The position numbers and the translations under genes were made by a program. Below are positions 20,248 through 38,680 of a DNA stretch of 44,825 nucleotides, one piece after another. The notes below the pieces were generated by a model. It did not search any database and was not told the origin of the DNA. It saw nothing but the letters and a program-made list of their open reading frames with translations. Source of the stretch: an uncultured bacterium. Its GTDB lineage: Bacteria > Desulfobacterota > Binatia > HRBIN30. Position 1 is the stretch's first letter; each line of letters begins with the position of its first letter. The stretch lies in contig CALJUJ010000119.1 of NCBI GenBank assembly GCA_937975525.1, positions 1 to 44,825 of the forward strand, given 5' to 3'.

Positions 20248-22533
<2,286 letters not shown>

Positions 22534-22570: not shown

Positions 22571-24346
22571 TCAGTTCGCCGTCAAGGCCTGGAACGTCGT
22601 CAGGACGAGGTCGCCCGAAGGTGCGTCGATGCCGACGCCCTGGATGCCGACCCGCGTGCCCACGATCGCGGGGTTGTTGGGCAGTGCGTAGGGGAACGTG
22701 GCCTCACCGGACGGTGACGTAAGGGCAGCGCCGAGCGGCGAAGCGGTTGCAGGATCAAGGACCAGCAGACCGAGATTCGGGATCTGGCTCCACTGCTGCA
22801 GCTCGGCTGGCCCGGCGAACAGCGCGACGACTTGTCCCTGGGTCCATTGCACGCGGATCACGTCACTGGCGCCCGGAGTGAACGCGCTCGCGAAGCTGCT
22901 GATCGTGACGACCGGGATGTCGGCCGTGGGTTCCATGTCGCTACGCGTCTCGATGCCGTCGCCATCGTCGTCGCCGAGATAGTCGAAGATGGTCATCATG
23001 CCGGCCCCCATGTGGTCGGCGTTGTGGCAGTGGAACAACCAACGTCCGGGGTTGTCCATCGTGATCTGGCTCGTGAAGGAGCTGCCCGGTTGGCCCGCCG
23101 GCCGGATCAGGATCGTGTCCTTGATCGGGGGCGCGGTGGTCCCGCCTGCCGTGCCCATCAGTCGGAAGAAGTGACCGTGGATGTGCATCGGGTGATAGAA
23201 CGGCATCATCATCATTCCGCCGTTGCTGATCGTCAGCTGCACGTTCTCACCGGTCGACGTCAGGAAGGGGGTGACGTTCGGCCAGGCCTGACCATTGATC
23301 AGATGTGCCATGCCGCCAGGTCCCATACCCATCCCGAGCGAGGCCGTGTAGGAGCGGTCGGGCGTCGATGTGATCGGTTGCACCGGGTGGAAGGAGGCGA
23401 GCTGGCTGTAGCTGAGGAGCGAGCCTCCCGACAGGTTGGCGGGCACGTAGTTGGCCGCCGGGATCGGCGCTCCCTGCCCCGTGTAGCGGATCACGCCGCG
23501 GACCAAGGTGCTGGTGCGGTTCGCGATGTCCGAGACCGCGAAGCTCCAGGTGCCGGGGTTGTTGCAGTCGACGATCACGTCCCATCGTTCGCCGATGCCG
23601 ATCGGGATCGCCTGCGTGACGACGGGCTGCACGCGGTTGCCGTCGGCGTGCGTGACCGTCATCGGGTGGCCGTCGAGCGCGAACACGTAGTTGGTCGTCG
23701 AGGCGACGTTGACGACCCGGATCCGCAGCTTCTGTCCCGGCTGGACGTCGAACGGGACCTGTCCGAGGCTACTCCGTCCGTTGAGCAGGTGTCCAGAGAA
23801 GGCTCCCCCGAGAGGGTTGCTCCAGTCGTCCAGGATGATCGTGTGCTCTACATCGAAGGTGGGGTCGCTGGCCGCGTTGGCCGGATCGACGATGAGCATG
23901 CCGGCGGGGCCCTTGGAGAGCTGGGTCTCGTTGCCGTGCGGGTGGTACCAGTACGTGCCGGGAACCAGGTCGTTCAGCTCGTAGATGAACTCCTGGCCGG
24001 GGGCGACCGCCGGGCGTGAGATCGACGGGACGCCGTCCATGCCGAGCGGCACGGGTTGGCCGTGCCAGTGCACGGCCGTGGCCTCCGGGAGTTCGTTGCG
24101 GAACCTGACGCGGAGCGTCTGCCCCTCCGTGATCCGTAGCGTCGGGCCAGGCAACGAGCCGTTGTAGAGCCAGGCGTTGACGCTGGTGCCGGGTGCGACC
24201 TGCGCGGTGCCAGGAGTTGCGGTCAGGTTGACTTCGACGACCTGAGCACGGACCGCAGTGGAGCAGAGCAGGGCAAGCGCTGATGCGGTGGCGAGCCGCA
24301 GGTTCCTGACGGGAGCAGCGAAGCCGGCATGTTGGCGGGATTTCAT
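22571..24346 (-). CDS. Secreted multicopper oxidase with a ~135-aa non-oxidase C-terminal extension
   Basis: Start at MKSRQHAGF (ATG 24346-24344). Copper sites are VHWHGQ, WYHPHG, HPMHIHGH and FHCHNADHMGAGM. The extension begins after DYLGDDDGDG. Confidence 0.85.
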   Translation of the reverse strand: MKSRQHAGFAAPVRNLRLATASALALLCSTAVRAQVVEVNLTATPGTAQVAPGTSVNAWLYNGSLPGPTLRITEGQTLRVRFRNELPEATAVHWHGQPVPLGMDGVPSISRPAVAPGQEFIYELNDLVPGTYWYHPHGNETQLSKGPAGMLIVDPANAASDPTFDVEHTIILDDWSNPLGGAFSGHLLNGRSSLGQVPFDVQPGQKLRIRVVNVASTTNYVFALDGHPMTVTHADGNRVQPVVTQAIPIGIGERWDVIVDCNNPGTWSFAVSDIANRTSTLVRGVIRYTGQGAPIPAANYVPANLSGGSLLSYSQLASFHPVQPITSTPDRSYTASLGMGMGPGGMAHLINGQAWPNVTPFLTSTGENVQLTISNGGMMMMPFYHPMHIHGHFFRLMGTAGGTTAPPIKDTILIRPAGQPGSSFTSQITMDNPGRWLFHCHNADHMGAGMMTIFDYLGDDDGDGIETRSDMEPTADIPVVTISSFASAFTPGASDVIRVQWTQGQVVALFAGPAELQQWSQIPNLGLLVLDPATASPLGAALTSPSGEATFPYALPNNPAIVGTRVGIQGVGIDAPSGDLVLTTFQALTAN

Positions 24347-24384
24347 GGGAAGTGCTTTGGGAAGATGGCTGCGAGACGGGGGGA

Positions 24385-24693
24385 TCACTGTTCCGACTGC
24401 ATGTGTTTTCTGATGCAGTCGAGGACTCCGAGGATGCTCGGGTGCGAGACGCGGTATGGGCGCGTTCGGCCTGCCGCGATGGGCGACAGGATGCCGAGTT
24501 GGCGAAGACCCTGAAGGTGCTGGCTGATCTGCGAGAGCGGCAGCCCGATCGCCTCGGCCAACTCGCTTGGGGTCGCTTGTCCGTCGCGAATGAGGTCGAG
24601 GATCTGCAGGCGGACCGGGTGCGCCACGGTGCGAAGAATCGGTGCGACCGATTCCAGGACGTCCGGTGGGATCAGCGGCGGGGAGGCGCTCAT
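24385..24693 (-). CDS. ArsR/SmtB-family metalloregulator
   Basis: 102 aa with HPVRLQILDLI...TPSELAEAIGLPLSQISQHLQGLRQLGIL (winged HTH). Ends 38 nt upstream of the MCO gene. Confidence 0.85.
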   Translation of the reverse strand: MSASPPLIPPDVLESVAPILRTVAHPVRLQILDLIRDGQATPSELAEAIGLPLSQISQHLQGLRQLGILSPIAAGRTRPYRVSHPSILGVLDCIRKHMQSEQ

Positions 24694-24732
24694 GACTCGA
24701 ACGATAGTGGCGGGAGGGAGAGAGGTCACAGG

Positions 24733-24765
24733 TTCTAGAAGGTGAGAACTCAGGAACTCTAGAAG
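24733..24765. promoter_or_regulatory. Candidate ArsR operator: TTCTAGAA palindrome plus a second TCTAGAAG copy
   Basis: GGTTCTAGAAGGTGAGAACTCAGGAACTCTAGAAGCC lies 40-70 nt upstream of the arsR-like ATG and is locally AT-rich in a GC-rich genome. Confidence 0.4.
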
Positions 24766-24955
24766 CCTCGAACACGGAGGGCCGCCACCCAGGCGGGCTG
24801 ACGTCGCTGAATTGCCGTCTTTGACCGGGCGTGTCGAAATGCAGTTTCTGCAAGCGTCCGGAACACGTCTCAGTTCGCGAGGAGGATCCGTAACGCAATG
24901 TTGCGAAGATGCTTGCGACGACTGGCGGGGTCGTGCCAGAGAGTCTTGCTGGGTT

Positions 24956-24971
24956 TGGCGCGCTCGTTGCA
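24956..24971 (+). promoter_or_regulatory. sigma54-like promoter TGGCGC-GCTCG-TTGCA for the lipoprotein/OMF/MCO operon
   Basis: One mismatch to TGGCAC-N5-TTGCA. Lies 32 nt upstream of the ATG at 25003. Confidence 0.45.
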
Positions 24972-25002
24972 CATCCGCAGCGACCGAACGCCGAGTTCCC
25001 CG

Positions 25003-25287
25003 ATGACCATGCACGAACCTCGATCGCCATCGCGCCCCTTCTCTCGTCCTCTGACAGCTCTGCTCCTCGCGTCCGCGAGTGCAGGCTCATGCGCGAGCAC
25101 CTTCGATCTCGATCTGCCGCCGGATCATCCGGCGTGCGTGACTGCGCCGAGCGGCGGGGCCTTGAACGTGCCGGATCCCGCAGCGGTCCCGGAGCAAGTC
25201 GAGGCCGTGAGCCCGGCGAACGAGATGCAAGGCATGGGCAGTGATGAAGACGCCATGCATCCGGGCCACGCGAAGGAGCAGCGGTGA
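25003..25287 (+). CDS. Small lipoprotein with a Met/His-containing C-terminus
   Basis: Start at MTMHEPRS..., with lipobox SAGSCAS. Ends NEMQGMGSDEDAMHPGHAKEQR. Its stop overlaps the OMF start (GTGATG). Confidence 0.45.
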   Translation: MTMHEPRSPSRPFSRPLTALLLASASAGSCASTFDLDLPPDHPACVTAPSGGALNVPDPAAVPEQVEAVSPANEMQGMGSDEDAMHPGHAKEQR

Positions 25288-26744
25288 TGGCGCGCAGTCG
25301 ATCGTTGCACCGACCTCGGGCACTCCGATCCCGTCTTGCTTACTGCGGTTCGCTCGCACTGCTGGCCGGTGCGTGTGCCGTGCCTCAGCGTGAGCGGGTG
25401 CTCGCCGACGTGCAGGACGCCGTGCACGAACGACTCGGTGCCGACGTGGACATCGAGGCGCGGCCACTCCGTCCGGAGGGGATCCGCGAGTTGCTCCAGG
25501 ACGAGCAGATGGACGCCGACGAAGCCGTCCGCCTCGCGATCGCCAACAACCCGATGCTGCATGCGGAACTCGCCGAGCTCGAGATCGCTCGCGCCCAGAT
25601 CTGGCAGGCATCGCTCGCGCCGAACCCTGTGATCGACGCGCAGCTTCGCTTCGCCGAGGCCGGCGGTGGCGACATCCTCGAACTCGGGGTCGCGCAGAGC
25701 ATCGTCGATGTCCTGCTGATCCCGCGGCGCCGCCAGGTCGCGGCCGAACGTCTGGCCCAGGTCGAAGCGCGGGTCACCGGCGCAGTGCTCGACCTTGCGA
25801 CCGAGGTGCGAGCCAACTACCGGGCGCTGCAAGCGGATCAACAGCTCGTCGAGCTCTTCGAGGCCGCGACCGATGCTGCGCGATTGACCCTCGATGCGAC
25901 GCGACGTCTCCGAGAGGCCGGCAACGTCATCGAGCTCGAGCTGCTACAGGAGCAGGCGGTGTTCGAGGATGCGCGGTTGGCGCTGACCGAAGCCCGGAAG
26001 AACGTCCGCCGACATCGTGAGAACCTGAACGTGCTGTTCGGGCTGTCGGGCCCCGAGGGGGAGAGCTGGCAGGTCGAAGGCCGGATGCCCGAACCGGCGC
26101 CGCTCTCGATCGAGCCCGCCGAGCTCGAGCGGCGGGTGGTCACCGGAAGCCTCGATCTCGAAGCAGGTCGGCGTGAACTGACGATGCTGGGCCATCGCCT
26201 CGGGCTCGAGCAGCTGAGCGCCGCGTTTCCGACGGGGGGCGTCGGCGTCAACGGCGAGCGCGAGGCCTCGGAGAGCTGGATCGTGGGAGGCAACGTGTCC
26301 CTTTCGCTGCCGGTCTTCGACTTCGGGCAGGCGGTCTCGGCACACGTGCGAGCTGAGATCGAGCAGGCGTTCCATCGGCTGACCGACCTCGCGATCCGCA
26401 TCCGGCGTTCGGCGCGCGACAGCCTCGTGGCCTCGGAGGTCAGCGGCAACAACGCTCGTCACCTGTTCGACGTCGTCGTGCCGCTCCGCACGCGGATCAC
26501 GCAGCAGACGCAGGAGCAGTTCAACGCGATGCAGATCGGCGTCTTCCGGGTCGTCGACGCCAAACGAGCCGAGCTCGACGCGGCCCGGCGCTACATCGAA
26601 GAGCTCAAGATGCACTGGATCGCGCGCAGCCAGCTCGAGTCGCTCCTGCTGGGGCGCCTGCCCGCGACGCGCTTCGGAATCACCGGGCCCGGACTCGGTT
26701 CGGTGTCCGCCATTGCGGGGGCCGGCGGCAACGGCGGCCACTAG
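25284..26744 (+). CDS. TolC/OprM-family outer-membrane efflux lipoprotein
   Basis: Lipobox LLAGACA and a two-repeat OMF helical pattern. Start is GTG 25284 or ATG 25287. Confidence 0.85.
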   Translation: MMARSRSLHRPRALRSRLAYCGSLALLAGACAVPQRERVLADVQDAVHERLGADVDIEARPLRPEGIRELLQDEQMDADEAVRLAIANNPMLHAELAELEIARAQIWQASLAPNPVIDAQLRFAEAGGGDILELGVAQSIVDVLLIPRRRQVAAERLAQVEARVTGAVLDLATEVRANYRALQADQQLVELFEAATDAARLTLDATRRLREAGNVIELELLQEQAVFEDARLALTEARKNVRRHRENLNVLFGLSGPEGESWQVEGRMPEPAPLSIEPAELERRVVTGSLDLEAGRRELTMLGHRLGLEQLSAAFPTGGVGVNGEREASESWIVGGNVSLSLPVFDFGQAVSAHVRAEIEQAFHRLTDLAIRIRRSARDSLVASEVSGNNARHLFDVVVPLRTRITQQTQEQFNAMQIGVFRVVDAKRAELDAARRYIEELKMHWIARSQLESLLLGRLPATRFGITGPGLGSVSAIAGAGGNGGH

Positions 26745-26787
26745 TCCCGCGCGACTGCCTTTCCTCATCCCACCGAACACACCCGAC

Positions 26788-28104
26788 ATGAATACTCGAC
26801 GCAACTTCCTGTTCTCCGGCGCCGCCGCAGGTGCGGCGGCCGCCTTGACCACCGCCGAACGGGCGAGCGCACGTAGCATCCGGCGCGATCTGGATCGCGC
26901 GAGCGTCGGTGGCGCGCAGCCGCGCGACCATCGGCCCGTCATCGTTCCCAGCGGCAGCAAGGCGCCGATGCGGGACGTCGACGGGGCCAAGGTCTACCAC
27001 CTCGTCGTCGAGGAGTTCGACCACACGTTCGCTCCGGGGCTCGTCGCGCGGTGCTGGGGCTTCAACAGGATGGTGAACGGTCACGTGATCGAGGCGGTCG
27101 AGGGGGACCGGGTTCGCATCTACGTCACCAACAGACTGCCCGCCCCGACGTCGACGCACTGGCACGGCCTGATCCTGCCCAACGGCATGGACGGTGTCAG
27201 CGGTCTGACGCAGCCGCCGATCCCGCCGGGGGAGACCTGGCTCTACGAGTTCGACCTGCGCCAGAACGGGACGCACATGTTCCACAGCCATCACGACACC
27301 ATGACGCAGGAGGGCCTCGGCCTCACGGGCATGTTCGTGATCCACCCGGCAGACGCCGGCGAGCCGATGGTGGACCGCGACTTCGCGCTGATGCTGCATG
27401 AGTGGCGGATCGACGCCGGGGCACGTCGGCCGAACCCCAACGAGATGAGCGACTTCAACGTGCTCACGATGAACGGCAAGGTCTTCCCGTTCCTCGATCC
27501 ACTGGTCGTGCGCAAGGGCCAGCGCGTCCGCATGCGGATCGGCAACCTGTCGGCGATGGACCATCACCCGATCCACCTCCATGGCTACGAGTTCCACGAG
27601 ACCGCGGTTGACGGCTGCAGGATTCCCGCGGAGCAGCAGCGCCGCCGCGTGACGACCCTCGTCGGCGTCGGTGAGACGCGTGACATCGAGTTCGACGCAG
27701 TCAACGTGGGCGACTGGGCCTTCCACTGCCACATGACCCACCACGTCATGAACCAGATGGGCCACGCATTCCCCAACATGATCGGCTTCGATGCGAAGGG
27801 CTTCGACAGTCGCGCGCGTTCGCTGCTGCCGGGCTACATGACGATGGGCGCGAAGGGCATGGGGGACATGACCGACATGGGCATGCCGTTGCCCGAGAAC
27901 AGCGTGCCGATGATCAAGGCCGAGGGCGGCTTCGGCAAGGACGTCAGCCTCGGTGGCATGGCCGGCGTCCTGAAGGTCCGGGAAGGGTTGTCCGACGAGG
28001 CGCTCGAGGCGAATCGAGATCCGGGTTGGTACGAGCATCCCAAGGGCACGGTCGCCGGCCCCGCGTCGGCGGAGGATCGTCGGCGAGATGGCATCGTCGA
28101 GTAG
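26788..28104 (+). CDS. Tat-exported multicopper oxidase with a Met-rich C-terminal region
   Basis: Twin-arginine signal MNTRRNFLFSGAAAGAAAAL. Copper sites are THWHGL, FHSHHD, HPIHLHGY and FHCHMTHHVMNQM. Met-rich stretch is GYMTMGAKGMGDMTDMGMP. Confidence 0.85.
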   Translation: MNTRRNFLFSGAAAGAAAALTTAERASARSIRRDLDRASVGGAQPRDHRPVIVPSGSKAPMRDVDGAKVYHLVVEEFDHTFAPGLVARCWGFNRMVNGHVIEAVEGDRVRIYVTNRLPAPTSTHWHGLILPNGMDGVSGLTQPPIPPGETWLYEFDLRQNGTHMFHSHHDTMTQEGLGLTGMFVIHPADAGEPMVDRDFALMLHEWRIDAGARRPNPNEMSDFNVLTMNGKVFPFLDPLVVRKGQRVRMRIGNLSAMDHHPIHLHGYEFHETAVDGCRIPAEQQRRRVTTLVGVGETRDIEFDAVNVGDWAFHCHMTHHVMNQMGHAFPNMIGFDAKGFDSRARSLLPGYMTMGAKGMGDMTDMGMPLPENSVPMIKAEGGFGKDVSLGGMAGVLKVREGLSDEALEANRDPGWYEHPKGTVAGPASAEDRRRDGIVE

Positions 28105-28483: not shown

Positions 28484-28738
28484 CATCACGTTTCCGCAGG
28501 CGCGCGAGCGGCCGCGTCTCCTCGCTCCGCCGGGAACCGCTTGATTCCATACGGGAGGCCGTCGCGCCGCTGGCGCTTCGAGTTGCACTAGGTGATGGCA
28601 GGCTAGGTGTGCAGCGATGTCCGTGGCAGACAGCGCGCGAAATGCGTCACAGCTCATGCGGCTGCGATTGAGTTGCTCGCTGGAAGTGGGCCGGCGGTCT
28701 CGTGCCTCTGCTCCGGTGGCGCTTCTTGCACAGCGAGG

Positions 28739-29185
28739 CTACGTCATGAATGTCGGGTTGCCAGCGTCGGTGGAGAACACGCGCATGGTCTCCACCGGCA
28801 AGTAGGTGAAGCTCTGTGGTGCCGTGACCCCATCATGGATCTCGTGGAGCGTCAGTGGTTCTGCGAGCGAAGTGGCCTTCTTCACGAGAATGGCAACAGC
28901 CGTACGGCTTCCCGCGTAGTATTCGCGGAACAACCGACGTGGAATCGCGCCATGGCCGCCATGTCTCTTCCATACAGCGGTCGGTGTGTCTTCATCGAGG
29001 TCTTGCACCTGGAAGTACCCCACGACCCTCTGGGTCGGGGCAGTGGCGTAGAGCAGCACGAACTGAATCTCCGGAGCGAGCTTCCGCTTCCTGAACTCGA
29101 CACTCTTGCGACCCTCTAGGATCGCAGTCGCGTGTTCTGGGTGAATGGCTAGAAGTGCTACGCGCTGAACTGATCGATCAGCCAT
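28739..29185 (-). CDS. Stand-alone ASCH (PUA-like) domain protein
   Basis: 148 aa. RVALLAIHPEHATAILEGRKSVEFRKRK...VVGYFQV...APQSFTYL follows the ASCH pattern. AGGAGG lies upstream of ATG 29185. Overlaps the upstream gene by 28 nt. Confidence 0.75.
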   Translation of the reverse strand: MADRSVQRVALLAIHPEHATAILEGRKSVEFRKRKLAPEIQFVLLYATAPTQRVVGYFQVQDLDEDTPTAVWKRHGGHGAIPRRLFREYYAGSRTAVAILVKKATSLAEPLTLHEIHDGVTAPQSFTYLPVETMRVFSTDAGNPTFMT

Positions 29186-30609
29186 TGGGTTCCCTCCCCT
29201 CCTACGCACATGATCGACTGCGGAGCCCGGGCGAAGACGCGGGCGTTCATGAGTTCTTCCGGAGTCTTGCATGGGGCGACAACTCTCACTTGGCGGAAGC
29301 GGATGGCAAGAACTTCTCGTGCCTCGCACAGGTCCTGGATCTCTTGGGCAGAGTAGACCGTTCTTCGCGCCACTGCTCGAACGACGACGGCTGGGTCTCG
29401 GGTGACGGTCGTGTCCTCGACGACTCCGATCGCGATCAGGCCTTGACGCCGTTGTGTGCGGTAGAATGCCAGAACGCTTCCCGGAACGAGTTGTCGTGAC
29501 GGGGCGTGGCACAGGTACGCCTTGCGGATCGCGTTGCCGAACGACAGTTGGCCCTCGAACAAGTTGCGCGTTGCGCAGGTCTCGGGGAAGAGTGCGTCGG
29601 AGAAGCGCGGTTGAATAGGTACCAGATGCCAGTCTTGCTGCGCATCGAAGCGAGGCGGACCATACTTGATGTGGTAGTCCAGTCCGGAAATGCCAGCTTG
29701 GGGTTCCAGAAGTTTCGTTAGAATGAGCTCGCCGACGTCGGTTGTCTCCGCGTGCGGCGAAAACCCGAAGTCGTCGAGGAGTTCGAGGAGGGTTTGGTGC
29801 TTCTCGAACACGGTCACGAACATTCCTGTGGCCCGCTTGCCGTGCGCGTGTTCGAAGACGGTCTTGAGGAGTAGCTCTCCGTACTTCAGGCCGTTGAATT
29901 GCTCGGCGACTTTGAAGCTGCAGATCTTCAGTGGGCGGTCACCTAGCGGCAGGCCTGGATGCACGTCGTTCTCTTTGACGATGCAGATGCCGGCCAAGCG
30001 GTCCCCGCCATCGATTGTCCACGTCTGGCGATGGTCGCGGCAGCACCTTGCAAACCAATCGTCGAACGTGGGGTAGTCGGCACGAAAGGAATCGAAGATG
30101 GGGTCGCGCTTGTCCAGGGCGTGCGGCTTGATGGATCTGACCGCGGGCGGTGCTGCGATGCTGGCGGGAGCACCGAGCAGTCGGACGGCTTCATCAATTG
30201 TCAGGACACGATGGTCGATCCCAAGGCGTCGGGCCTTCTTGCGGATCCCTCTGTCCTCGGAGATCAGGAAGTCGATGGCGTCAGCATCGAGTGCAACGAT
30301 CAGGTTGTTGTCGACCCAGTCGTTTGATCCACGCGCGGGGGAGCCGATGACAGACTCGTGAGCGGGAGTGATCGGCGGTGGATCTGGGAGTTCCGGGTAC
30401 TTGCCTGCGAGGACGCGCCGAAGTTCTGCTCGACTCGTGTCCTTGTCGCGGTCGATGTCGTGCGAGTGGGCTGGGTGGAGGTAGGTGGTGTGACCACCTT
30501 CCTGCGCTCGGCGATTGATGAGAGCTGCGGCCTCTGAGTTGGTCGCCACGTCAGCTGTGGACGCAGGCTCCAGTGGAATGAAGATGTTGGTGTCGAGGAG
30601 CAGCTTCAC
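29158..30609 (-). CDS. Triple-domain protein: N-terminal PIN nuclease, central GNAT acetyltransferase, C-terminal ASCH-like domain
   Basis: PIN: MKLLLDTNIFIPLEP...DNNLIVALDADAIDFLISEDRGI. GNAT: AGICIVKEN...LKICSFKVAEQFNGLKYGELLLKTVFEHA...LLDDFGFS. ASCH-like: HLVPIQPRFSDALFPE...GSVLAFYRT...LIAIGVVED...APQSIMCV. Confidence 0.75.
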   Translation of the reverse strand: MKLLLDTNIFIPLEPASTADVATNSEAAALINRRAQEGGHTTYLHPAHSHDIDRDKDTSRAELRRVLAGKYPELPDPPPITPAHESVIGSPARGSNDWVDNNLIVALDADAIDFLISEDRGIRKKARRLGIDHRVLTIDEAVRLLGAPASIAAPPAVRSIKPHALDKRDPIFDSFRADYPTFDDWFARCCRDHRQTWTIDGGDRLAGICIVKENDVHPGLPLGDRPLKICSFKVAEQFNGLKYGELLLKTVFEHAHGKRATGMFVTVFEKHQTLLELLDDFGFSPHAETTDVGELILTKLLEPQAGISGLDYHIKYGPPRFDAQQDWHLVPIQPRFSDALFPETCATRNLFEGQLSFGNAIRKAYLCHAPSRQLVPGSVLAFYRTQRRQGLIAIGVVEDTTVTRDPAVVVRAVARRTVYSAQEIQDLCEAREVLAIRFRQVRVVAPCKTPEELMNARVFARAPQSIMCVGGEGTQWLIDQFSA

Positions 30610-30649
30610 GAGGAGTGGGCTTCGGACCGAGCAAGGCGCGCGGCGGGCT

Positions 30650-31195
30650 TCATCTCGAACCGAACTCTACCCATGCGGCGTCGAGCACACCGTCGATGAT
30701 GTCTCCGCGGATTGGGTGGTTCGGGTGCGCCTCTAGCATCTTGGCAACTTCTCGGTGAGCCGTGGCCTGCGCCTTGACGACCTCGCAGCAGCGTGCATGA
30801 GAGGCCGCGAGCGTGCTGGCCATGGCATCGACGCCCACGGTGGGTTGTTGTTCGCGCCAGAGGCGTAGCGCCTCGAAGTGGTCTTGACACTTCACGCGGG
30901 GCGTTTGCCCCATCTCGAAGTCGAAGGCCATTCTGTCGAGTGCCTGCGCTCGTGGTGGCTCAAGTCGCGAGCCGAGGACCTCGCACTCGGCCGCGGGTCC
31001 GCCGAGGATCACGTCGAGTTGGACGTCGAATGGCTCATGGCGCAGTTCGCAGTGGCTTGCGCGGCCAGAGCCATCATCGCAAGCGATGGCCCGGCGGATG
31101 AAGAGTTGGTGATGCCGAAGGAGTAGAACGTGCCCAGCTTCGTGGACGGCAGCTCGTCGGAGCTCAGTTGCGTGAATGATAGGATCTTGCGTCAT
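30650..31195 (-). CDS. Stand-alone M41 (FtsH-type)-like zinc metallopeptidase domain protein
   Basis: Start at MTQDPIIH (AAGGGAG SD upstream). AAVHEAGHVLL (HExxH) followed by VILGGPAAECEVLG parallels HEAGHA...GGRAAEE of FtsH. No AAA+ module or TM segment. Confidence 0.6.
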   Translation of the reverse strand: MTQDPIIHATELRRAAVHEAGHVLLLRHHQLFIRRAIACDDGSGRASHCELRHEPFDVQLDVILGGPAAECEVLGSRLEPPRAQALDRMAFDFEMGQTPRVKCQDHFEALRLWREQQPTVGVDAMASTLAASHARCCEVVKAQATAHREVAKMLEAHPNHPIRGDIIDGVLDAAWVEFGSR

Positions 31196-31261
31196 GGCTC
31201 CCTTGGCGCGAAAGCGTCGTCGCTTTGCCAAGCCCGAGTAGGCATGGTACCCTCCCGCCAT

Positions 31262-31279
31262 GGAGCTCCAAGGAGCTCC
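31262..31279. promoter_or_regulatory. Tandem 8-bp palindromes GGAGCTCC-AA-GGAGCTCC, candidate operator of the peptidase/PIN-GNAT-ASCH/ASCH operon
   Basis: Two identical self-complementary octamers 10 bp apart, 67-84 nt upstream of ATG 31195. A long imperfect palindrome CTTGGCgcgAAAGCG-tcgt-CGCTTTGCCAAG at 31202-31233 abuts the SD. Confidence 0.35.
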
Positions 31280-32750
31280 TCGTCGTCAGAACTCGAAACA
31301 CAGTCTGACGTCGCCTCGAAGTGCCGCAGCATCGCCCGGCAAACCTGGCAGCCACCAGGCTAAGGGGGCAGGGTTCACCGCCTGCCGTGATGCCGGCTCG
31401 TAGCGCTGGATGCCCGGAGACGGGCTCGTCCAGTGCGAGAGAGGCTTGAGCGAGTAATCCGTTCGAATCCAGTTGGGCCAAGGTGTCCGCGCTCTCGGGA
31501 TCGGTTCCGAGGGGTGCGGTGCCCCTCTCCCAGACGCTTGTCGAACGTCAATCCGCTCATTCTATCTCATGGTGATCCCGCGCTTCGGAGGCGGGACGAC
31601 CGAGACACGCCACGCGGCGAAACTCCGTGTGGTCGTGGATGACGAAGTCGGTGAGGTAGCGAAGGCGCCGAACACCCCGCTTGCCCCGCACGATGATGAC
31701 TCGTGCGACTGCTCGTCCGCCGTGGCGGGTGCAACCGAGCAAGCGAGGAAGTGGCGTGCTGCCAAATCCACCTGCGGGGTCCGGGCCCGGTTGTCGTGTT
31801 CGACGCCGCGTCCGTTCAACGCAAGCCAGCGCCGGGAGCTCGATCGCCGCGAGGCGAATCGACCGGGCCCGACAAGCCCGGGGACCGAGGGAAAGCCCCT
31901 CGGCCGTGAAAAGTTCAACGGTGAAAGGCCCGCGAGGGCTTGCTGGTCAGAAGCATGGGAGACGGTGCCGAACTGCGAACGCACCTGTCCGGTCTGTAAG
32001 GCGGAGCTTCTGCATTCTGCCGCCTGAAATCCCGGAGGACCTGCTCTGGGGAGAGTGAAGCATCGGTCGGGAGACCAGGCTTCACGGGCTCGTGCCGCGG
32101 CGTGAAACGCCGCTAGCAACGTGACCCATGCTTCGACGTGATCCACTAATCGGGGAAGGACTCGAGCTGCCGGGGAGGTGCCCGGTGCCTGGCTGTCGAC
32201 CAGGTGATTCAAAGGCTCGAGTCTGGGAGCGAGCTGCAAGTAGAAGTCGGGCGGGAGCCCGAGCGGTGGCGAGACCGAAGGGTCTCGAAGGAGTCTTCGT
32301 GCGACTCCTTCCTGGCAAGGCAGTCAGGACCCGCGTTCGCGCACGCCGGTTGGCCCCGGCGAGCACACGCGACGACGAAAGCAGCGACGAGCGAACGAAA
32401 CGTCACTCGAGGTGACGGTTGCTTGGTAAGCACGACTTGTGGCTGCAGGGGGTAAGGAAGTGCTCCGGGAGGAGCCGCCCCCTGCGGCGACAGGATGACG
32501 ATGGACGCCGGAGGTTTATCCGGCGGCCGTCGCAAGGAGGTCTTGCGCAACCATCATGGATTGGACACGCCCTGCGGGCGTGCGATCTGGAATGTGGGTA
32601 TGCGCGCAACGAGGTTGCCAAGGAGGTGATCAGCATGGTTGGGGCGATGGCCGCTGGCCGGAAGGTTCAGCGGCTTGGAGCGTGCCCGTGAACGCTCCGC
32701 ACTTGTCCGTTCCGTGGAGCGGAGAGGTGCCAGGAAGTTGTAGGTGCAGT
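31280..32750. other. ~1.45 kb ORF-poor, hairpin-dense region (candidate large structured RNA, origin-like region or decayed genes)
   Basis: No ORF with protein-like sequence in any frame. Many short GC stems, several with GNRA-type or GAAA-containing loops: GCCC-GCGA-GGGC near 31928, GCGGCG-TGAAA-CGCCGC near 32097, GAGGG-AAAG-CCCCTC near 31887. Confidence 0.3.
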
Positions 32751-33815: not shown

Positions 33816-34538
33816 TCAGGCGCGAGTTGTCTCTCGAGACGGCATCTCGTCCCAGACCCTGCCGTCGAGCAGGCGCCCGGTCTTCTTCTTGTTCGTGCCT
33901 CCCCACTGCTTGAAGAAGAACGGGACACCATCCGCTGCGCAGGCGTCCCGGAGGTGTCGAACCCACTCGGGGGCAATCAGCCGTGCGCCAGGTCCGGACT
34001 CTCCACCGACGATGACCCAGCCGATGCCGGTCAGGTCGATCTCGGTCAGCGGGCCCAGCAACGGCTCGAGCGAGAGGAAGCGGACGTTGGCGGGGACGGT
34101 TCGCAGGTCGTCGATCCGGTCGAGGTAGTCGGCGCTCTCGACACTCACACCCATCCAGACGTTCTCAGGCCAGGGCAGCTGTGGGGCGACTTCTCGAAGT
34201 CGATCCGCGCGCTTCGTCAAGATCTGGAAGGTGTGCTGAGGCGCTTGCTCCATCGTCCGGAACACGCGTTGGATGAACGGTGTCGGCACGTCCTTGTGGA
34301 ACAGGTCGCTCATCGAGTTGACGAACACGAGTCGGGGTTTCCGCCAGCGAAGCGGGATGTCGAGCATGTGCTCCTGGAGCGTGAGCTGGAATCCCCTGGC
34401 GTAGTTGGCTTGTCCCATCGCCTGTAGGCGTTTGGCCATGCGCTCCGCGTAGCAGTGTTTGCAGCCTGGGCTGGTCTTCGTGCAGCCCGTCACCGGGTTC
34501 CACGTGGCGTTTGTCCACTCGATTGTTGATCGACTCAT
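33816..34538 (-). CDS. DUF5131 (phage Gp37/Gp68 family) three-Cys-motif protein
   Basis: [38 protein letters not shown] is the hallmark N-terminus. AGGAGG lies 5 nt upstream of ATG 34538. Confidence 0.85.
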
Positions 34539-34655
34539 CGGCACCTCCTAGTTGTTGTGATGTGGCCTGTCCGGCGGTCGGCGCGCGCCGATGACTGCGT
34601 GGACGCTCACACTCTTGTGCAACGAAGCCAGCAGGTGAGTGAGAGACGCGAGGCC

Positions 34656-34999: not shown

Positions 35000-36493
35000 T
35001 TACTTTTGAGGCCCCTCCGTGAAGCCGAGGTCTTGCCCGTCTCGGGCCCCGTCCGCGGATGGGTTCAGCTTCGGCTTCGAGTCCAGCTCGTCCTTCAGCC
35101 GCTTGTAGTCCAGGTAGTGGAAGATGCCCTGGATGCTGTTCGTCGCCGAACAGACGAACGCCGTGAAGAGCTCGGCGATGGTCGCCTCCCTCTTCGTCAG
35201 CTCCTCCGCGACGCGGAGCACGACGCGCGGATCGGGCTCGCGCGCGTCCACGAATCGTTGCCACCATGTCCGGGCGGACTTGGGAGCTGCCTCGATCTCG
35301 AGGCTCGGAAGAACCTCTTCGAGCCGTTCACGAATCTGGTCGTGGGTCCAGCCCCTCGTGTTCGTGATGCCATCGACACGGCCGAACTCGCGCGTGACGA
35401 ATCGAGGAAGCGCCGGGCGGTCCTCCTCCGCCGCCCGCCTCGAAGCGCCGTAGAAGAAGCGGGCCTTCTGTCCCTCGTCCACGGTCCTGCGGGTGACCTC
35501 GATGCGATCCACGGTCCTCTGGTCCTGAAGAAGACGCCAGATCGTCGGCTCGAGCGCCTGCGTTGCGACCCGGTCCAGCGCTCGAGCTCCCGTCCCGAGG
35601 GACAGCGCACGTCGGGCGATGGCTCGCATGGCTCCCTTCGAAACCGAGAGCTTTGCGCCGTGTCTTGCGGCGAATGCTTGGGTGCTGTGGATGACCGATG
35701 CCTTGGAGTCCGAGAGCACGCGTTCGAGCTCGTTGAGCGTCAGGGGTCGCAGCCGGGCGACGGTCGTGAAGCGCCCGAGCAGCTCCGGGATCATGCCGAA
35801 CTCGACCAGAGCTCCGTGGCCATCGAGTTCCAGGGTGCCTGTATCGGGATCACCTTGGATGCATGCGAACCCGAGAGACCCATGCTGGTGGTGGGAGTCG
35901 AGGATCTGCTCGATCCCAGGGAACGCACCGGCGCAGACGAACAGGATCCCGCGCGTGCTGACCATCATGGTTTCGTCTTCTCGGCGAATGGCAACCTTGG
36001 CGCCGTCCATGAGCTTCAGCAGGGACTGCTGCACGCCTTCGCCAGAGACGTCCCTCGAGATGTCACTTACCCGCCGCTTCTTGTCGATCTCGTCGATGAA
36101 GATGATCCCGCGTTCGGCGCGTCGGACGTCCCCCTCTGCTGCGTGTAGTAGGCGATGAACGACGCTGTCGACATGCTCTCCCGAGTAGCCGACCTCCACG
36201 AGGTTCGTCGCGGAGCACGTGGCGATGGGGGTGTCGATCAGCCTGCCGAGCTCGCGGACGAGCCGGGTCTTGCCGCAGCCGGTCGGGCCAACGAGCAGGA
36301 CGTGTTGCGGGCCGAACGCGGGCGTGTTGTGTCCCGAGTCCATCGAGAGTCCCAGCTGGTGGCGGTAGACGGCCAACGACAGGGCGCGTTTTGCGTTGTC
36401 CTGGCCGATGATGACCCCGCCCGAGATCGGGTGTGATGCGGTCCGCGATCTGGTCGTCCGGTACGTCGAGCAGACCGGTGATCGGGAGTTCAT
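35000..36493 (-). CDS. ClpX-like AAA+ unfoldase without the N-terminal zinc finger, with a ~150-aa C-terminal extension
   Basis: VIIGQDNAKRALSLAVYRH; Walker A GPTGCGKT; pore-loop region EVGYSGEHVDSVV (GYSG versus ClpX GYVG); Walker B IIFIDEIDK; HGSLGFA at the position of the ClpX IGF loop; GRFTTVARLRPLTLNEL. Start is ATG 36493 or TTG 36529. Confidence 0.8.
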   Translation of the reverse strand: MNSRSPVCSTYRTTRSRTASHPISGGVIIGQDNAKRALSLAVYRHQLGLSMDSGHNTPAFGPQHVLLVGPTGCGKTRLVRELGRLIDTPIATCSATNLVEVGYSGEHVDSVVHRLLHAAEGDVRRAERGIIFIDEIDKKRRVSDISRDVSGEGVQQSLLKLMDGAKVAIRREDETMMVSTRGILFVCAGAFPGIEQILDSHHQHGSLGFACIQGDPDTGTLELDGHGALVEFGMIPELLGRFTTVARLRPLTLNELERVLSDSKASVIHSTQAFAARHGAKLSVSKGAMRAIARRALSLGTGARALDRVATQALEPTIWRLLQDQRTVDRIEVTRRTVDEGQKARFFYGASRRAAEEDRPALPRFVTREFGRVDGITNTRGWTHDQIRERLEEVLPSLEIEAAPKSARTWWQRFVDAREPDPRVVLRVAEELTKREATIAELFTAFVCSATNSIQGIFHYLDYKRLKDELDSKPKLNPSADGARDGQDLGFTEGPQK

Positions 36494-36521
36494 GCGGGCA
36501 TGGAAGGTCGTCACGCGATCG

Positions 36522-36926
36522 ATGCCCAACCCGAGTCACTTCGTTCGGCAGGTCGCGGAGGGGCGCGACGCGGACCTCGAGCAGATCGAAGAAGACTGTC
36601 TCAGCGGCGAGGTAGGGGCCTCAACCGCAACCTTGCTCGCGAGGTTCTACGACGCGTACGAGCGGGACATCGAGGAACTCGAGACCTTCATCACGTGCCA
36701 ACGTCTGGTGGGTGGACTCATCTCCGCAACGCTGAAGGATGCTCACCGGCGCATTCGTGCGGTCGAAGCGTCGGAGCGGGCGCGAAGGATCAAGCGCAGG
36801 GAAAGCGAGAATCGCGGTCCCTACTCGGTCAGCAACCGGACTCCCGTTCAGTCGCTCGCGGAACGACGAAAGCTGCTGGGAATCGCGATCCAGCAGTCCG
36901 TGCCCAAGACGAAGAGGGGTTGGTAA
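36522..36926 (+). CDS. Hypothetical protein upstream of xis/int
   Basis: Open frame with helical, charged sequence (ARFYDAYERDIEELETF...). Same strand as xis and contiguous with it. Start uncertain (36396-36522). Confidence 0.4.
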   Translation: MPNPSHFVRQVAEGRDADLEQIEEDCLSGEVGASTATLLARFYDAYERDIEELETFITCQRLVGGLISATLKDAHRRIRAVEASERARRIKRRESENRGPYSVSNRTPVQSLAERRKLLGIAIQQSVPKTKRGW

Positions 36927-36952
36927 GTTTGGGCGAGTTCTCTCCAGAACCG

Positions 36953-37291
36953 ATGCGCGACGAAGGTGGTCACCTTCTCCCATCCGTGCCCGATTCTGAC
37001 GTCGGTCCGCGGCACACCGATGTGCTCGCGAACCTCGTTGCGCGGCTCGAAATCGCTCTGGAGAAGAAGCTCGAAGAGATCGAACAGCGCCTACGCACAC
37101 GCACGACCCTGCGAAAGATGTTCACCGAACGCGACCTTGCCGAGCTCCTTCAATGCGACGTGCGAACGGTCCGTCGGCTGGAGAAGGCTGGCGACCTGCC
37201 GGCAGCGATCCGCTTCGGCGGCTCGAAGCGGTGGCGGGTGCGCACGATCGAGGAGTGGCTGGACGCGATGTCCGAGGAGTCGAACCGGTGA
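36953..37291 (+). CDS. xis: Excisionase-family (AlpA/MerR-like HTH) DNA-binding protein
   Basis: MFTERDLAELLQCDVRTVRRLEKAGDLPAAIRFGGSKRWRVRTIEEWL is the typical excisionase HTH plus wing. Its TGA overlaps the integrase GTG (GTGA at 37288-37291). Confidence 0.75.
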   Translation: MRDEGGHLLPSVPDSDVGPRHTDVLANLVARLEIALEKKLEEIEQRLRTRTTLRKMFTERDLAELLQCDVRTVRRLEKAGDLPAAIRFGGSKRWRVRTIEEWLDAMSEESNR

Positions 37292-38655
37292 GGGGGCGTG
37301 CGCTAGGTCGGGGCCGCCTCGTGAAGCGGCGCAACAAGGGCGGAACCGTCTACCTCGGCGATTGGACCGACGCGAGCGGCAAGCGCCGTCGCCAGGTGCT
37401 GTCGACCGACCGGCGTGTCGCCGAGCGTCGACTCGGAGACATCATCCGCAGGCGGGATCTCGAGATCGCTGGGCTCGGTCGCGAGGAATCGCATGACCGC
37501 CTGCTGGAGGAGGTTCGCCGACTCTACGAGTCCGACCTCGAGCCGAGAGTCAGCGCCGGACACCTCAGCAACCTGAAGGGGCGACTCAAGCGCGTGCTCG
37601 GCGGGCTCCGCGCCAGGCGAGTCTCTGAGCTGCAGACAAGCGACCTGCTCGAGTGGCGTCGCAAGCGCGTGGAAGACGGTGCGTCCAACCGGACGGCGAA
37701 CCTCGACGTGGCGGCCGTCCAGGGGATGCTGCGATGGGCGGTCGATTGCGACGTCATCGCATCGAACCCGCTGGCGAAGCTCAAGCGCCTGCCGCAGGGG
37801 CAGAAGCACCAGCGCTACCGTCGGCGCGCCCTGTCGGAAGCGGAGATCGAACGGTTCCTCACGGCCGCGATCGAGGATGACGCCGAGCAGGCGCGCCACG
37901 TGGCGGCAGAGCGCACGATCAAGAACGGCACGAAGGGAAGTCGCTACGCCGGCCGCGAGCGCTCGCATCGCGTTCCGCAGTATCCGCTCTGGCTCGCGCT
38001 CGTGGAGACTGGTGCCCGTTGGGGAGCCCTCAGCCAGACCGTCTGGCAGGACCTCGACGAGGGAGCCGCGACGCTTCGGCTGCGCGCGGAGACGGCGAAG
38101 TCCGGTCGCGAACAGACCAACCCCGTCCGCCAAGAGTTGGTCGATGAGCTCGTCGTGCTGCGAGAACTCCAGACCGAGCTACTCGGTGACGTGCCCGGGG
38201 ACGGCGATCGGATCTTCCTGACTCCGAGGGGCGAGCCGTGGGGCAAGCAGAGCCGCAACGCGATGCGTATCTTCGACCGGCTGCTCGACCGCGCCGAGCT
38301 CGAGAAGATCGACGCGTCGGGCCAGAAGCTCGACATCCACGCCCTGCGGCACACCTACGGAACGCGGCTCCTCCGTGCCGGCGTCGGCCTGCACCAGGTG
38401 CAGAAGCTCATGGGCCACAGCTCTCCCGAGCTGACGGCCAGGGTCTACGCGCACCTCGTGTCGGATGACCTGCGCGACGCAGTCGAACGGCTGCCTCGCG
38501 GCGGGGGCGGTGGCAGCCGTTCGCTGCGTCGCGGACTTCCTGGCACCAAATTGGCACACGGGAAGGGGAGCTTCGGGCGCGTCGCGCGTAAGTCCCTGGA
38601 AGGAATGGAGCGGGTGATCGGGATCGAACCGACGACATTCAGCTTGGGAAGCTGA
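37288..38655 (+). CDS. int: Tyrosine recombinase/integrase
   Basis: Catalytic region ETGARWGAL...HALRHTYGTRLLRAGVGLHQVQKLMGHSSPELTARVYAHL (R...HxxR...H...Y). Convergent with the tRNA, and the ORF tail runs through attR. Confidence 0.9.
   Translation: MRGRALGRGRLVKRRNKGGTVYLGDWTDASGKRRRQVLSTDRRVAERRLGDIIRRRDLEIAGLGREESHDRLLEEVRRLYESDLEPRVSAGHLSNLKGRLKRVLGGLRARRVSELQTSDLLEWRRKRVEDGASNRTANLDVAAVQGMLRWAVDCDVIASNPLAKLKRLPQGQKHQRYRRRALSEAEIERFLTAAIEDDAEQARHVAAERTIKNGTKGSRYAGRERSHRVPQYPLWLALVETGARWGALSQTVWQDLDEGAATLRLRAETAKSGREQTNPVRQELVDELVVLRELQTELLGDVPGDGDRIFLTPRGEPWGKQSRNAMRIFDRLLDRAELEKIDASGQKLDIHALRHTYGTRLLRAGVGLHQVQKLMGHSSPELTARVYAHLVSDDLRDAVERLPRGGGGGSRSLRRGLPGTKLAHGKGSFGRVARKSLEGMERVIGIEPTTFSLGS
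38541..38560 (+). promoter_or_regulatory. Arm-type repeat TGGCACCAAATTGGCACACG (right arm)
   Basis: 19/20 identical to 1836-1855 and in the same orientation, 43 bp inside attR. Confidence 0.5.
38603..38650 (-). repeat. attR core (within the intact tRNA-Gly)
   Basis: 48-bp perfect match to 1644-1691. Covers the tRNA from the anticodon loop to CCA, plus 3 nt. Confidence 0.85.
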
Positions 38656-38680
38656 CGTTCTACCACTGAACTACACCCGC
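38606..38680 (-). tRNA. tRNA-Gly (anticodon CCC), CCA encoded
   Basis: Folded by hand: acceptor GCGGGTG/CACCCGC, D stem GTTC/GAAC, anticodon stem TCAGC/GCTGA with loop TTCCCAA, T stem GTCGG/CCGAT with loop TTCGATC, discriminator T, then CCA. 75 nt. Confidence 0.9.

Follow-up and report, generated by a model that had tools for sequence, protein, structure and literature searches.

The window analysed here is the 44,825-nucleotide (nt) contig CALJUJ010000119.1 of an uncultured bacterium of the Binatia (lineage HRBIN30). In this study, we have examined three intact open reading frames (ORFs), all on its minus strand at 28739-31195, which encode, in order, a stand-alone metallopeptidase, a protein that joins PIN-like, GNAT and PUA-like domains (protein A, or the fusion), and a free-standing ASCH protein (protein B). 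Based on our results, we are highly confident that the last two genes are a member of PDC-M11, a two-gene candidate system of the PADLOC database, and that the peptidase lies outside the conserved unit. The layout given by the original prediction was borne out by the ORFs: the three genes are co-directional, with a gap of 40 nt (30610-30649) between the first two and an overlap of 28 nt between the last two. The good Shine-Dalgarno sequences that it assigned to the first and last genes are likewise present, as AAGGGAG ahead of the peptidase ATG and GGAGGGGAGGG ahead of the ASCH ATG; inspection of the sequence upstream of the fusion's GTG start found no ribosome-binding site. For the peptidase, a longer reading of 203 amino acids (aa), starting at 31261, is also open.

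The identity of the pair follows from the PADLOC models. The fusion matches PDC-M11A (PDLC04421) with an E value of 1.2e-167 over residues 1-481 of 483, and the free ASCH protein matches PDC-M11B (PDLC04425) with an E value of 2e-39. Both models are matched at full length by adjacent, co-directional and overlapping genes, and we found no structural difference from PDC-M11, a system of candidate status only, the definition of which excludes the upstream peptidase. The same architecture has been described by comparative genomics. PIN_15 and PIN_17 were reported as PIN-GNAT-PUA proteins with a second PUA/ASCH gene always in the operon (Matelska 2017; PMC5499597), and "(PIN)-GNAT-EVE" operons were reported to encode an ASCH protein nearly always and to lie often near type I restriction-modification or other defence genes, none of these modules having been characterised (Bell 2020; PMC7641849). 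In their passages on these operons, both papers credit Iyer 2013 with the first description. The window copy shares with them the three-domain fusion, the second PUA-like (ASCH) gene and the defence or mobile context. Unlike some of these operons, it carries no helix-turn-helix (HTH) domain on the ASCH protein and no adjoining AAA_17 ATPase or type I restriction-modification genes. It also differs in lying in a copper-resistance island, and its C-terminal domain is nearest to the Zymomonas mobilis protein ZmASCH by structure and to EVE by Pfam. The module had been put forward as an undescribed system without a name, which does not hold: it is already catalogued, as a candidate only, under PDC-M11 and as a (PIN)-GNAT-PUA/EVE plus ASCH operon, and a PIN-less form of it in a phage carries the GenBank annotation GevT/GevA. 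The accompanying proposal of a toxin-antitoxin or defence module stands for the fusion and the free ASCH gene, on the evidence of PADLOC and of three comparative-genomics papers, and fails for the peptidase as a member.

The pairing of the two genes is kept across a wide collection of loci. A genome-contig scan with the single protein gave 4 loci only, and metagenome contigs were searched with an alignment instead; in all, 93 loci encoding a fusion homologue were collected, which form 79 clusters at 95% identity. In 86 of the 86 loci with room for one, the next gene downstream, on the same strand, is an ASCH gene. The ASCH start was called cleanly in 73 of these; in the other 13 the ORF was over-extended and still overlapped the 3' end of the fusion gene. 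Of the 73 clean overlaps, 36 measure 28 nt, 12 measure 25 nt and 10 measure 34 nt, and these three lengths share one frame relation. In the window, the 28-nt overlap and the ribosome-binding site inside the end of the fusion gene make it probable that A and B are translationally coupled. When all neighbouring ORFs were clustered against each other, no third conserved gene was found, and no other family occurs in more than 4 of the 93 loci. The flanks elsewhere include a DarT/Macro plus helicase-MZB-PLD cluster, an AAA plus S8 peptidase pair, MazE/PIN genes, integrases and transposases, and are typical of mobile and defence regions. More broadly, at least 664 fusion homologues, mostly of about 487 aa, and more than 428 metagenome loci were found, plasmids, archaea and phages being among the carriers; a fusion homologue is present in 33 plasmid records, of which the alpha-proteobacterial ones bear an HTH on the ASCH partner. 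A PIN-GNAT homologue was also seen in Methanothermobacter phage psiM100, as ORFD (8233-9453, "inserted fragment IFa"), which is 28% identical to residues 1-397 of the fusion (E 2e-36).

The peptidase behaves differently. A hidden Markov model (HMM) of its family matched in none of the other 91 fusion loci, 54 distinct versions (less than 95% identical) with at least 700 nt of upstream sequence among them. Among fusion loci it matches only L005 and L016, both 99% identical copies of the window. The sole other match at E <= 0.01 is a marginal one on the opposite strand of L063 (E 0.009, 13.9 bits), which we treated as noise. The peptidase relatives that we examined have other neighbours: one adjoins an integrase and a STAND NTPase (L097), and another follows ArdC-N, DUF5131 and 126-aa genes and precedes an integrase (L103); beside these relatives, M11 genes were absent. 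Thus, of the neighbourhood that the original prediction expected to recur, the fusion and the free ASCH gene do recur together and the trio does not, and a conserved three-gene unit is contradicted by the absence of the peptidase from the other 91 loci. The adjacency of peptidase and M11 genes is specific to the window's lineage.

Turning to the fusion, its AlphaFold2 model, built with 69 homologues, has three globular parts (predicted local distance difference test score, pLDDT, 91.2; predicted template modelling score 0.85). In the first, PIN families are the only ones that match: PIN_3 in 17 of 20 members (best E 1.3e-5), PIN_5 in 7 of 20, PIN in 4 of 20, and then PIN_4. Six residues (D6, N8, E14, D55, D100 and D119) are invariant and two (D51 and E118) nearly so, and D6, E14, D55, D100 and D119 would fit an active PIN domain. 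In the model of this region strands and helices alternate as in PIN domains, and no PIN entry is among the 50 Foldseek matches listed for the fusion; nor did the profile of the domain match a PIN structure when compared with the sequences of solved structures. As judged from sequence, the PIN assignment appears good at the family level and weak for the window protein alone.

The second part is a GNAT fold. PF00583 matches residues 175-283 with E 4.2e-5 (24.2 bits against a gathering cut-off of 20.7) and is found in 61 of 69 family members, and Foldseek returns PaiA, HP0935, NatC/NatD and others, with a probability of 1.0 for PaiA, HP0935 and Naa50. Four residues (K228, K233, G240 and E245) show no variation and G244 almost none. 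Compared with the canonical motif A, Q/R-x-x-G-x-G/A, which forms the acetyl-CoA pyrophosphate loop, the fusion reads N-G-L-K-Y-G, with Lys in place of the middle Gly; its G240-x3-G244 loop aligns with the equivalent loop of the solved GNATs NatD (4ua3) and 9y12. The Tyr usual before the GF motif is Leu (LLDDFGF). For the third part, the best solved-structure match by Foldseek is ZmASCH (5y6b/5gus; TM-score 0.77). By Pfam, EVE (PF01878) matches 4 of 69 members (best E 8e-5) and ASCH 0 of 69, the window sequence itself being unmatched. Against the free-ASCH family, hhalign places the domain in register, weakly (E 9e-4, probability 23%), and both proteins end with a P-Q-S motif, APQSIMCV in the fusion and APQSFTYL in the free ASCH protein. 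The PIN-GNAT-ASCH composition first proposed for the fusion therefore survives as a PIN domain at family level, a GNAT domain and a PUA-like C-terminus; the term "ASCH-type" is only approximately right for the latter, because EVE is the sole Pfam family matched.

The downstream 148-aa protein was correctly taken for an ASCH domain. PF04266 matches 38 of 44 family members, the window protein itself scoring 20.1 bits against a cut-off of 21.2, and the family profile aligns end to end with ZmASCH (ZMO0922, PDB 5GUS) at E 5.6e-30. Invariant residues are G25, K27, E30 and R32, which make up a GxKxxExR motif, together with Y46 and P123; Q124 is nearly so. ZmASCH (PDB 5GUQ, 5GUS, 5Y6B and 5Y6C) is a full-length homologue of protein B, and itself matches PDC-M11B at 3e-29. 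It binds nucleic acids and shows a weak Mg- or Mn-dependent cleavage in vitro, of single-stranded RNA only and preferentially at pyrimidine-A bonds, to which Tyr47, Lys53 and Ser128 contribute (PMC5615036). In the free ASCH protein, the counterpart of Tyr47 is the invariant Y46 and that of Ser128 is the Ser of the P-Q-S motif, S125 in APQSFTYL; Lys53 is not kept (Q52). Unlike protein B, ZmASCH does not have an M11A protein as its upstream neighbour. Among the relatives of the free ASCH protein, only the one encoded by the ZmASCH gene (L099:6001-6447) has been studied biochemically. We considered this gene as a member of an M11 operon and rejected this, as its upstream neighbour encodes a 375-aa protein unrelated to M11A, with no Pfam or PADLOC match.

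When the free-ASCH profile was compared with solved-structure sequences at E <= 10, the matches beyond ZmASCH were all non-significant (E >= 0.085): two were unrelated chains, and the other two, 2dp9 and 1wk2 (E about 0.1), are hypothetical proteins of small size. None of the matched chains bears the name YqfB, the presence of a YqfB structure in the searched set not having been checked. A YqfB-like deacetylase, which the original prediction had offered as an eraser, is unsupported, because ZmASCH is the only solved ASCH structure that the profile matches significantly.

Several known systems resemble the pair in part. One is a PIN-less GNAT-EVE/ASCH pair of Escherichia phage PhiR47_2 (PV340567.1; L106:2456-3884), annotated as GevT toxin and GevA antitoxin, which match PDC-M11A (2e-133) and PDC-M11B (7e-52) and are 28% and 37% identical to the window proteins. 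Gene order and overlap are as in the window; GevT has 357 aa and no PIN domain. Within this lambdoid phage, the pair immediately follows cI and precedes kil, the position of rexAB in lambda, and the same gene occurs in at least 8 E. coli phage records. The GNAT toxins TacT, AtaT, ItaT and KacT are single-domain proteins, and their antitoxins are ribbon-helix-helix/DUF1778 DNA-binding proteins encoded upstream. They share with the fusion the GNAT fold and a small adjacent partner gene, and the comparison shows no membership at the sequence level. By analogy with them, aminoacyl-tRNA has been proposed as a possible target of the (PIN)-GNAT-EVE proteins (Bell 2020; PMC7641849). The PIN domain, with its conserved acidic residues, is like that of VapC, and PIN_15 and PIN_17 have been placed in the VapC group (Matelska 2017; PMC5499597); compared with VapBC, the PIN domain of the window is fused to GNAT and PUA-like domains, and the partner is a downstream ASCH protein, not an upstream DNA-binding antitoxin. 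The two adjacent, overlapping genes, kept in 86 loci, have the layout of a toxin-antitoxin system of type II, with no DNA-binding domain on the putative antitoxin.

We tentatively propose that the pair is a toxin and its antidote acting on RNA. Protein A would be an RNA-directed toxic effector: its PUA-like domain would dock on an RNA nucleotide, possibly a modified one, with tRNA or phage RNA as the likeliest targets, its GNAT domain would acetylate the bound substrate or else sense acetyl-CoA, and its PIN domain would cleave the RNA. The ZmASCH-type protein B, made in a fixed ratio through translational coupling, would restrain A: it might bind A, or it might compete for or process the RNA on which A acts. 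If a phage infects the cell, or if the module is lost, the balance between A and B could tip, and growth arrest would follow, as abortive infection or as addiction. Taken as a whole, a self-contained, horizontally mobile two-gene conflict module of PDC-M11 that works in this way is, on balance, the probable reading.

A number of points weigh against it. The PIN sequence of the window itself is weak, its best Pfam match being PIN_5 at E 0.14, and motif A of the GNAT domain has been held to be degenerate and the domain probably inactive (Matelska 2017; PMC5499597). Protein B is an ASCH domain only, by Pfam and by profile, and carries no DNA-binding domain, unlike classical type II antitoxins; the RNase activity of ZmASCH is weak and its gene is not adjacent to an M11A gene. 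In the literature that we searched, we found no experimental test of PDC-M11, phage protection included, and no publication behind the names GevT and GevA, so that "toxin" and "antitoxin" rest on the depositor's annotation there. Finally, the 40-nt gap and a variable slot that holds exactly three genes (Table 1) leave room for a local coupling of the peptidase.

Among the other explanations, one does without a toxin: the GNAT domain would acetylate a base of DNA or RNA as a mark, which would be read by the two PUA-like domains and erased by the ASCH protein. It corresponds to the writer/eraser pair of the original prediction. The texts of Bell 2020 (PMC7641849) and Matelska 2017 (PMC5499597), where they cite this proposal, attribute it to Iyer 2013. 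In its favour are a GNAT fold with a conserved cofactor loop, the presence of two PUA-like domains within one operon and the citation of the proposal by both papers. We nevertheless consider it unlikely. The free ASCH protein is of the ZmASCH type, with no significant match to another solved structure and none named YqfB, the pair occurs sporadically, in association with mobile elements, plasmids and phages and between flanks that vary, and an always-present PIN nuclease would suit a destructive role better than an epigenetic one. The annotation of GevT also names a GNAT-EVE protein as a toxin.

Somewhat less likely again is a plain PIN-RNase toxin with an ASCH antidote, in which the GNAT domain would be catalytically dead and serve with the PUA-like domain as a scaffold or ligand sensor, as suggested by Matelska 2017. 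The loop N-G-L-K-Y-G, in which the canonical motif A is not kept, the Leu that replaces the usual Tyr in LLDDFGF and the invariance of the PIN acidic residues all speak for it. On the other hand, G240 and G244 are conserved, the same form of the loop is found in NatD and 9y12, and PF00583 scores above its gathering cut-off. Moreover, the PIN-less GevT is itself annotated as a toxin, and toxicity would therefore not need the PIN domain.

The third explanation returns to the peptidase, which had been described from its motifs as M41-like with no ATPase, and correctly so. It carries HEAGH (HEXXH) and GGPAAE (GGxAAE), the profile of its 13 known relatives matches the YME1 protease domain (E 2.1e-12, 169 of 175 profile positions) and also FtsH, and the significant Foldseek matches of its AlphaFold2 model (pLDDT 92.9) in the solved-structure library are all FtsH or FtsHi chains. 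The whole of its 181 aa is protease domain; an N-terminal AAA+ ATPase module was not found by Pfam or by the family profile, and it differs from FtsH and YME1, with which it shares motifs, profile and fold, in having neither this module nor a membrane anchor. In FtsH the third zinc ligand sits in G-x-S-x-D, and the corresponding segment of the peptidase is not clearly aligned. From profile and model, it is a genuine stand-alone protease domain of the FtsH/YME1 M41 type. An exhaustive HMMER search of 1.8 billion proteins gave only 13 representative clusters, which makes the family a very small one; a word-based homologue search returned nothing beyond the peptidase itself, and its single sequence gave nothing significant against PADLOC, Pfam, NCBIfam and PHROGs. 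One relative, P0133 (296 aa), also contains a fused 3'-5' exonuclease domain of the PolB-like type (PF10108, E 4.7e-19).

The surroundings of the peptidase were compared with two sister contigs, L013 and L101, which share the window's island backbone at 86-100% DNA identity from about 33389 to 31256-31275. Identity to L013 is 89-100% down to about 31256 and resumes from 28483, and identity to L101 is 86% down to 31275; in both contigs it collapses exactly at the peptidase start (L013:5001 and L101:3226). Both contigs encode a peptidase at this place, 42% (L013) and 28% (L101) identical in protein to that of the window, such that the peptidases of the sister contigs are 28-42% identical compared with 61-84% for the upstream backbone proteins. 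What follows the peptidase also changes: the M11 pair in the window, a DUF4062 protein and then a symporter in L013, and a convergent integrase in L101. The DUF4062 gene (L013:5687-6823) encodes a 378-aa protein with DUF4062 at its N-terminus, overlaps the peptidase stop by 4 nt and holds the position of the M11 pair. The divergence of the peptidases and the changing downstream genes mark the peptidase as a rapidly changing gene that belongs to a family of integrative elements. Placed at the edge of the cargo hotspot, it does not accompany M11 as a partner.

A three-component system, in which the stand-alone M41 peptidase would regulate the pair, for instance by cleaving the ASCH antidote or by cutting the linkers of the fusion to free the PIN domain, is improbable in view of these data. 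The genes are co-directional with a 40-nt gap, the variable slot contains exactly the three of them, and the L013 homologue overlaps another conflict-type gene, that of the DUF4062 protein. The DNA homology to L013 and L101 breaks exactly at the peptidase start, and the peptidase therefore varies together with the genes downstream of it; without this break, no evidence would be left for a local coupling of the three genes. Set against this are the lack of a peptidase match in the 91 other fusion loci, the relatives whose neighbours are integrases, DUF5131 and ArdC-N, or a STAND NTPase and include no M11 genes, and the lack of a PADLOC match for the peptidase. From textbook knowledge of FtsH, an M41 domain with no AAA+ unfoldase would be expected to cut only unfolded peptides. 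As a partner of this kind we considered an AAA+ ATPase of the island (35000-36529) and rejected it, as it lies 4 kb away beside a DUF5131 gene and no evidence links the two. At a similarly low level of probability, the peptidase could have been recruited in the window's lineage as a third, proteolytic control layer of the PDC-M11 pair. More generally, its family might be a swappable "lead gene" exchanged with downstream effectors at one integrative-element hotspot (the M11 pair, the DUF4062 protein of L013, the integrase end of L101), perhaps as a switch of the ImmA/IrrE type.

The preferred two-gene PDC-M11 module is carried as cargo inside a copper-resistance island (Table 1). The island is bounded by perfect direct repeats of 48 bp (1644-1691 and 38603-38650) that contain the 3' end of tRNA-Gly(CCC) (38606-38680), and GC content is 0.663 in the island compared with 0.715 and 0.738 in the flanks beyond it. 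The three genes lie at 0.59-0.63, with 0.599 at 29001-30000; together with the repeats, the tRNA gene and the integrase, these values agree with the earlier placement of the genes in a lower-GC part of a tRNA-integrated island.

Table 1. Features of the window discussed in the text, by position on the contig
Feature	Position	Strand	Basis or remark
Stand-alone M41 (FtsH/YME1-type) metallopeptidase domain	30650-31195	-	181 aa from ATG at 31195
PDC-M11A, PIN-GNAT-PUA(EVE/ASCH-like) fusion, predicted effector/toxin	29158-30609	-	483 aa, GTG start, PADLOC
PIN-like domain, about aa 1-148	30166-30609	-	Pfam PIN families, invariant acidic residues
GNAT acetyltransferase-fold domain, about aa 160-305	29695-30132	-	PF00583, Foldseek
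C-terminal PUA-like domain, about aa 320-483, end APQSIMCV	29161-29652	-	Foldseek, Pfam
PDC-M11B, stand-alone ASCH protein, predicted antidote/regulator	28739-29185	-	148 aa, PADLOC
A/B gene overlap, with GGAGG ribosome-binding site within 3' end of A	29158-29185	-	28 nt, read directly in the sequence
Variable cargo slot, contents exactly peptidase, A and B	28484-31256	.	DNA comparison with sister contigs L013 and L101
Integrative island in tRNA-Gly(CCC), 37 kb	1644-38650	.	48-bp att repeats and integrase
Tyrosine integrase	37153-38655		
HTH_17 protein	36500-37291		
Copper P-type ATPase	20248-22533		
Multicopper oxidases, two	22571-25090 and 26713-28104		
Outer-membrane efflux protein	25284-26744		

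Elsewhere in the island, the product of the DUF5131 (phage Gp37/Gp68) gene at 33816-34544 (minus strand) matches the PADLOC candidates PDC-M41B (E 3e-121) and PDC-M30B (E 1e-114). The adjoining AAA+ ATPase gene at 35000-36529 (minus strand; AAA_2/ClpB-D2-small) has no strong PADLOC match, and the two may form a second candidate defence module of the island. In L101 the peptidase is preceded by a 190-aa and an 86-aa gene; homologues of both lie in the window at 31292-32129 (minus strand), with matches spread over more than one reading frame, and a 75-aa gene called in L014 is split over two frames there; these may be frameshifts or mis-called small genes of a backbone operon.

In conclusion, the pair is widespread and has been flagged four times by computation, and we found no published biochemical or phage-challenge data on it. 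The window copy adds little beyond another clean example, in the copper-resistance island of a high-GC bacterium. The unit to clone is two genes, not three. For the free ASCH protein, the YqfB analogy is the wrong starting point, and its solved and biochemically probed homologue ZmASCH provides ready-made mutant positions, Y46 and S125. The PDC-M11 family remains a worthwhile experimental target: a nuclease is combined in the pair with an acetyltransferase fold and with two PUA-like domains that bind nucleic acids, so that solving how the pair works could bring to light a new means by which RNA is sensed or marked while a phage infects the cell.

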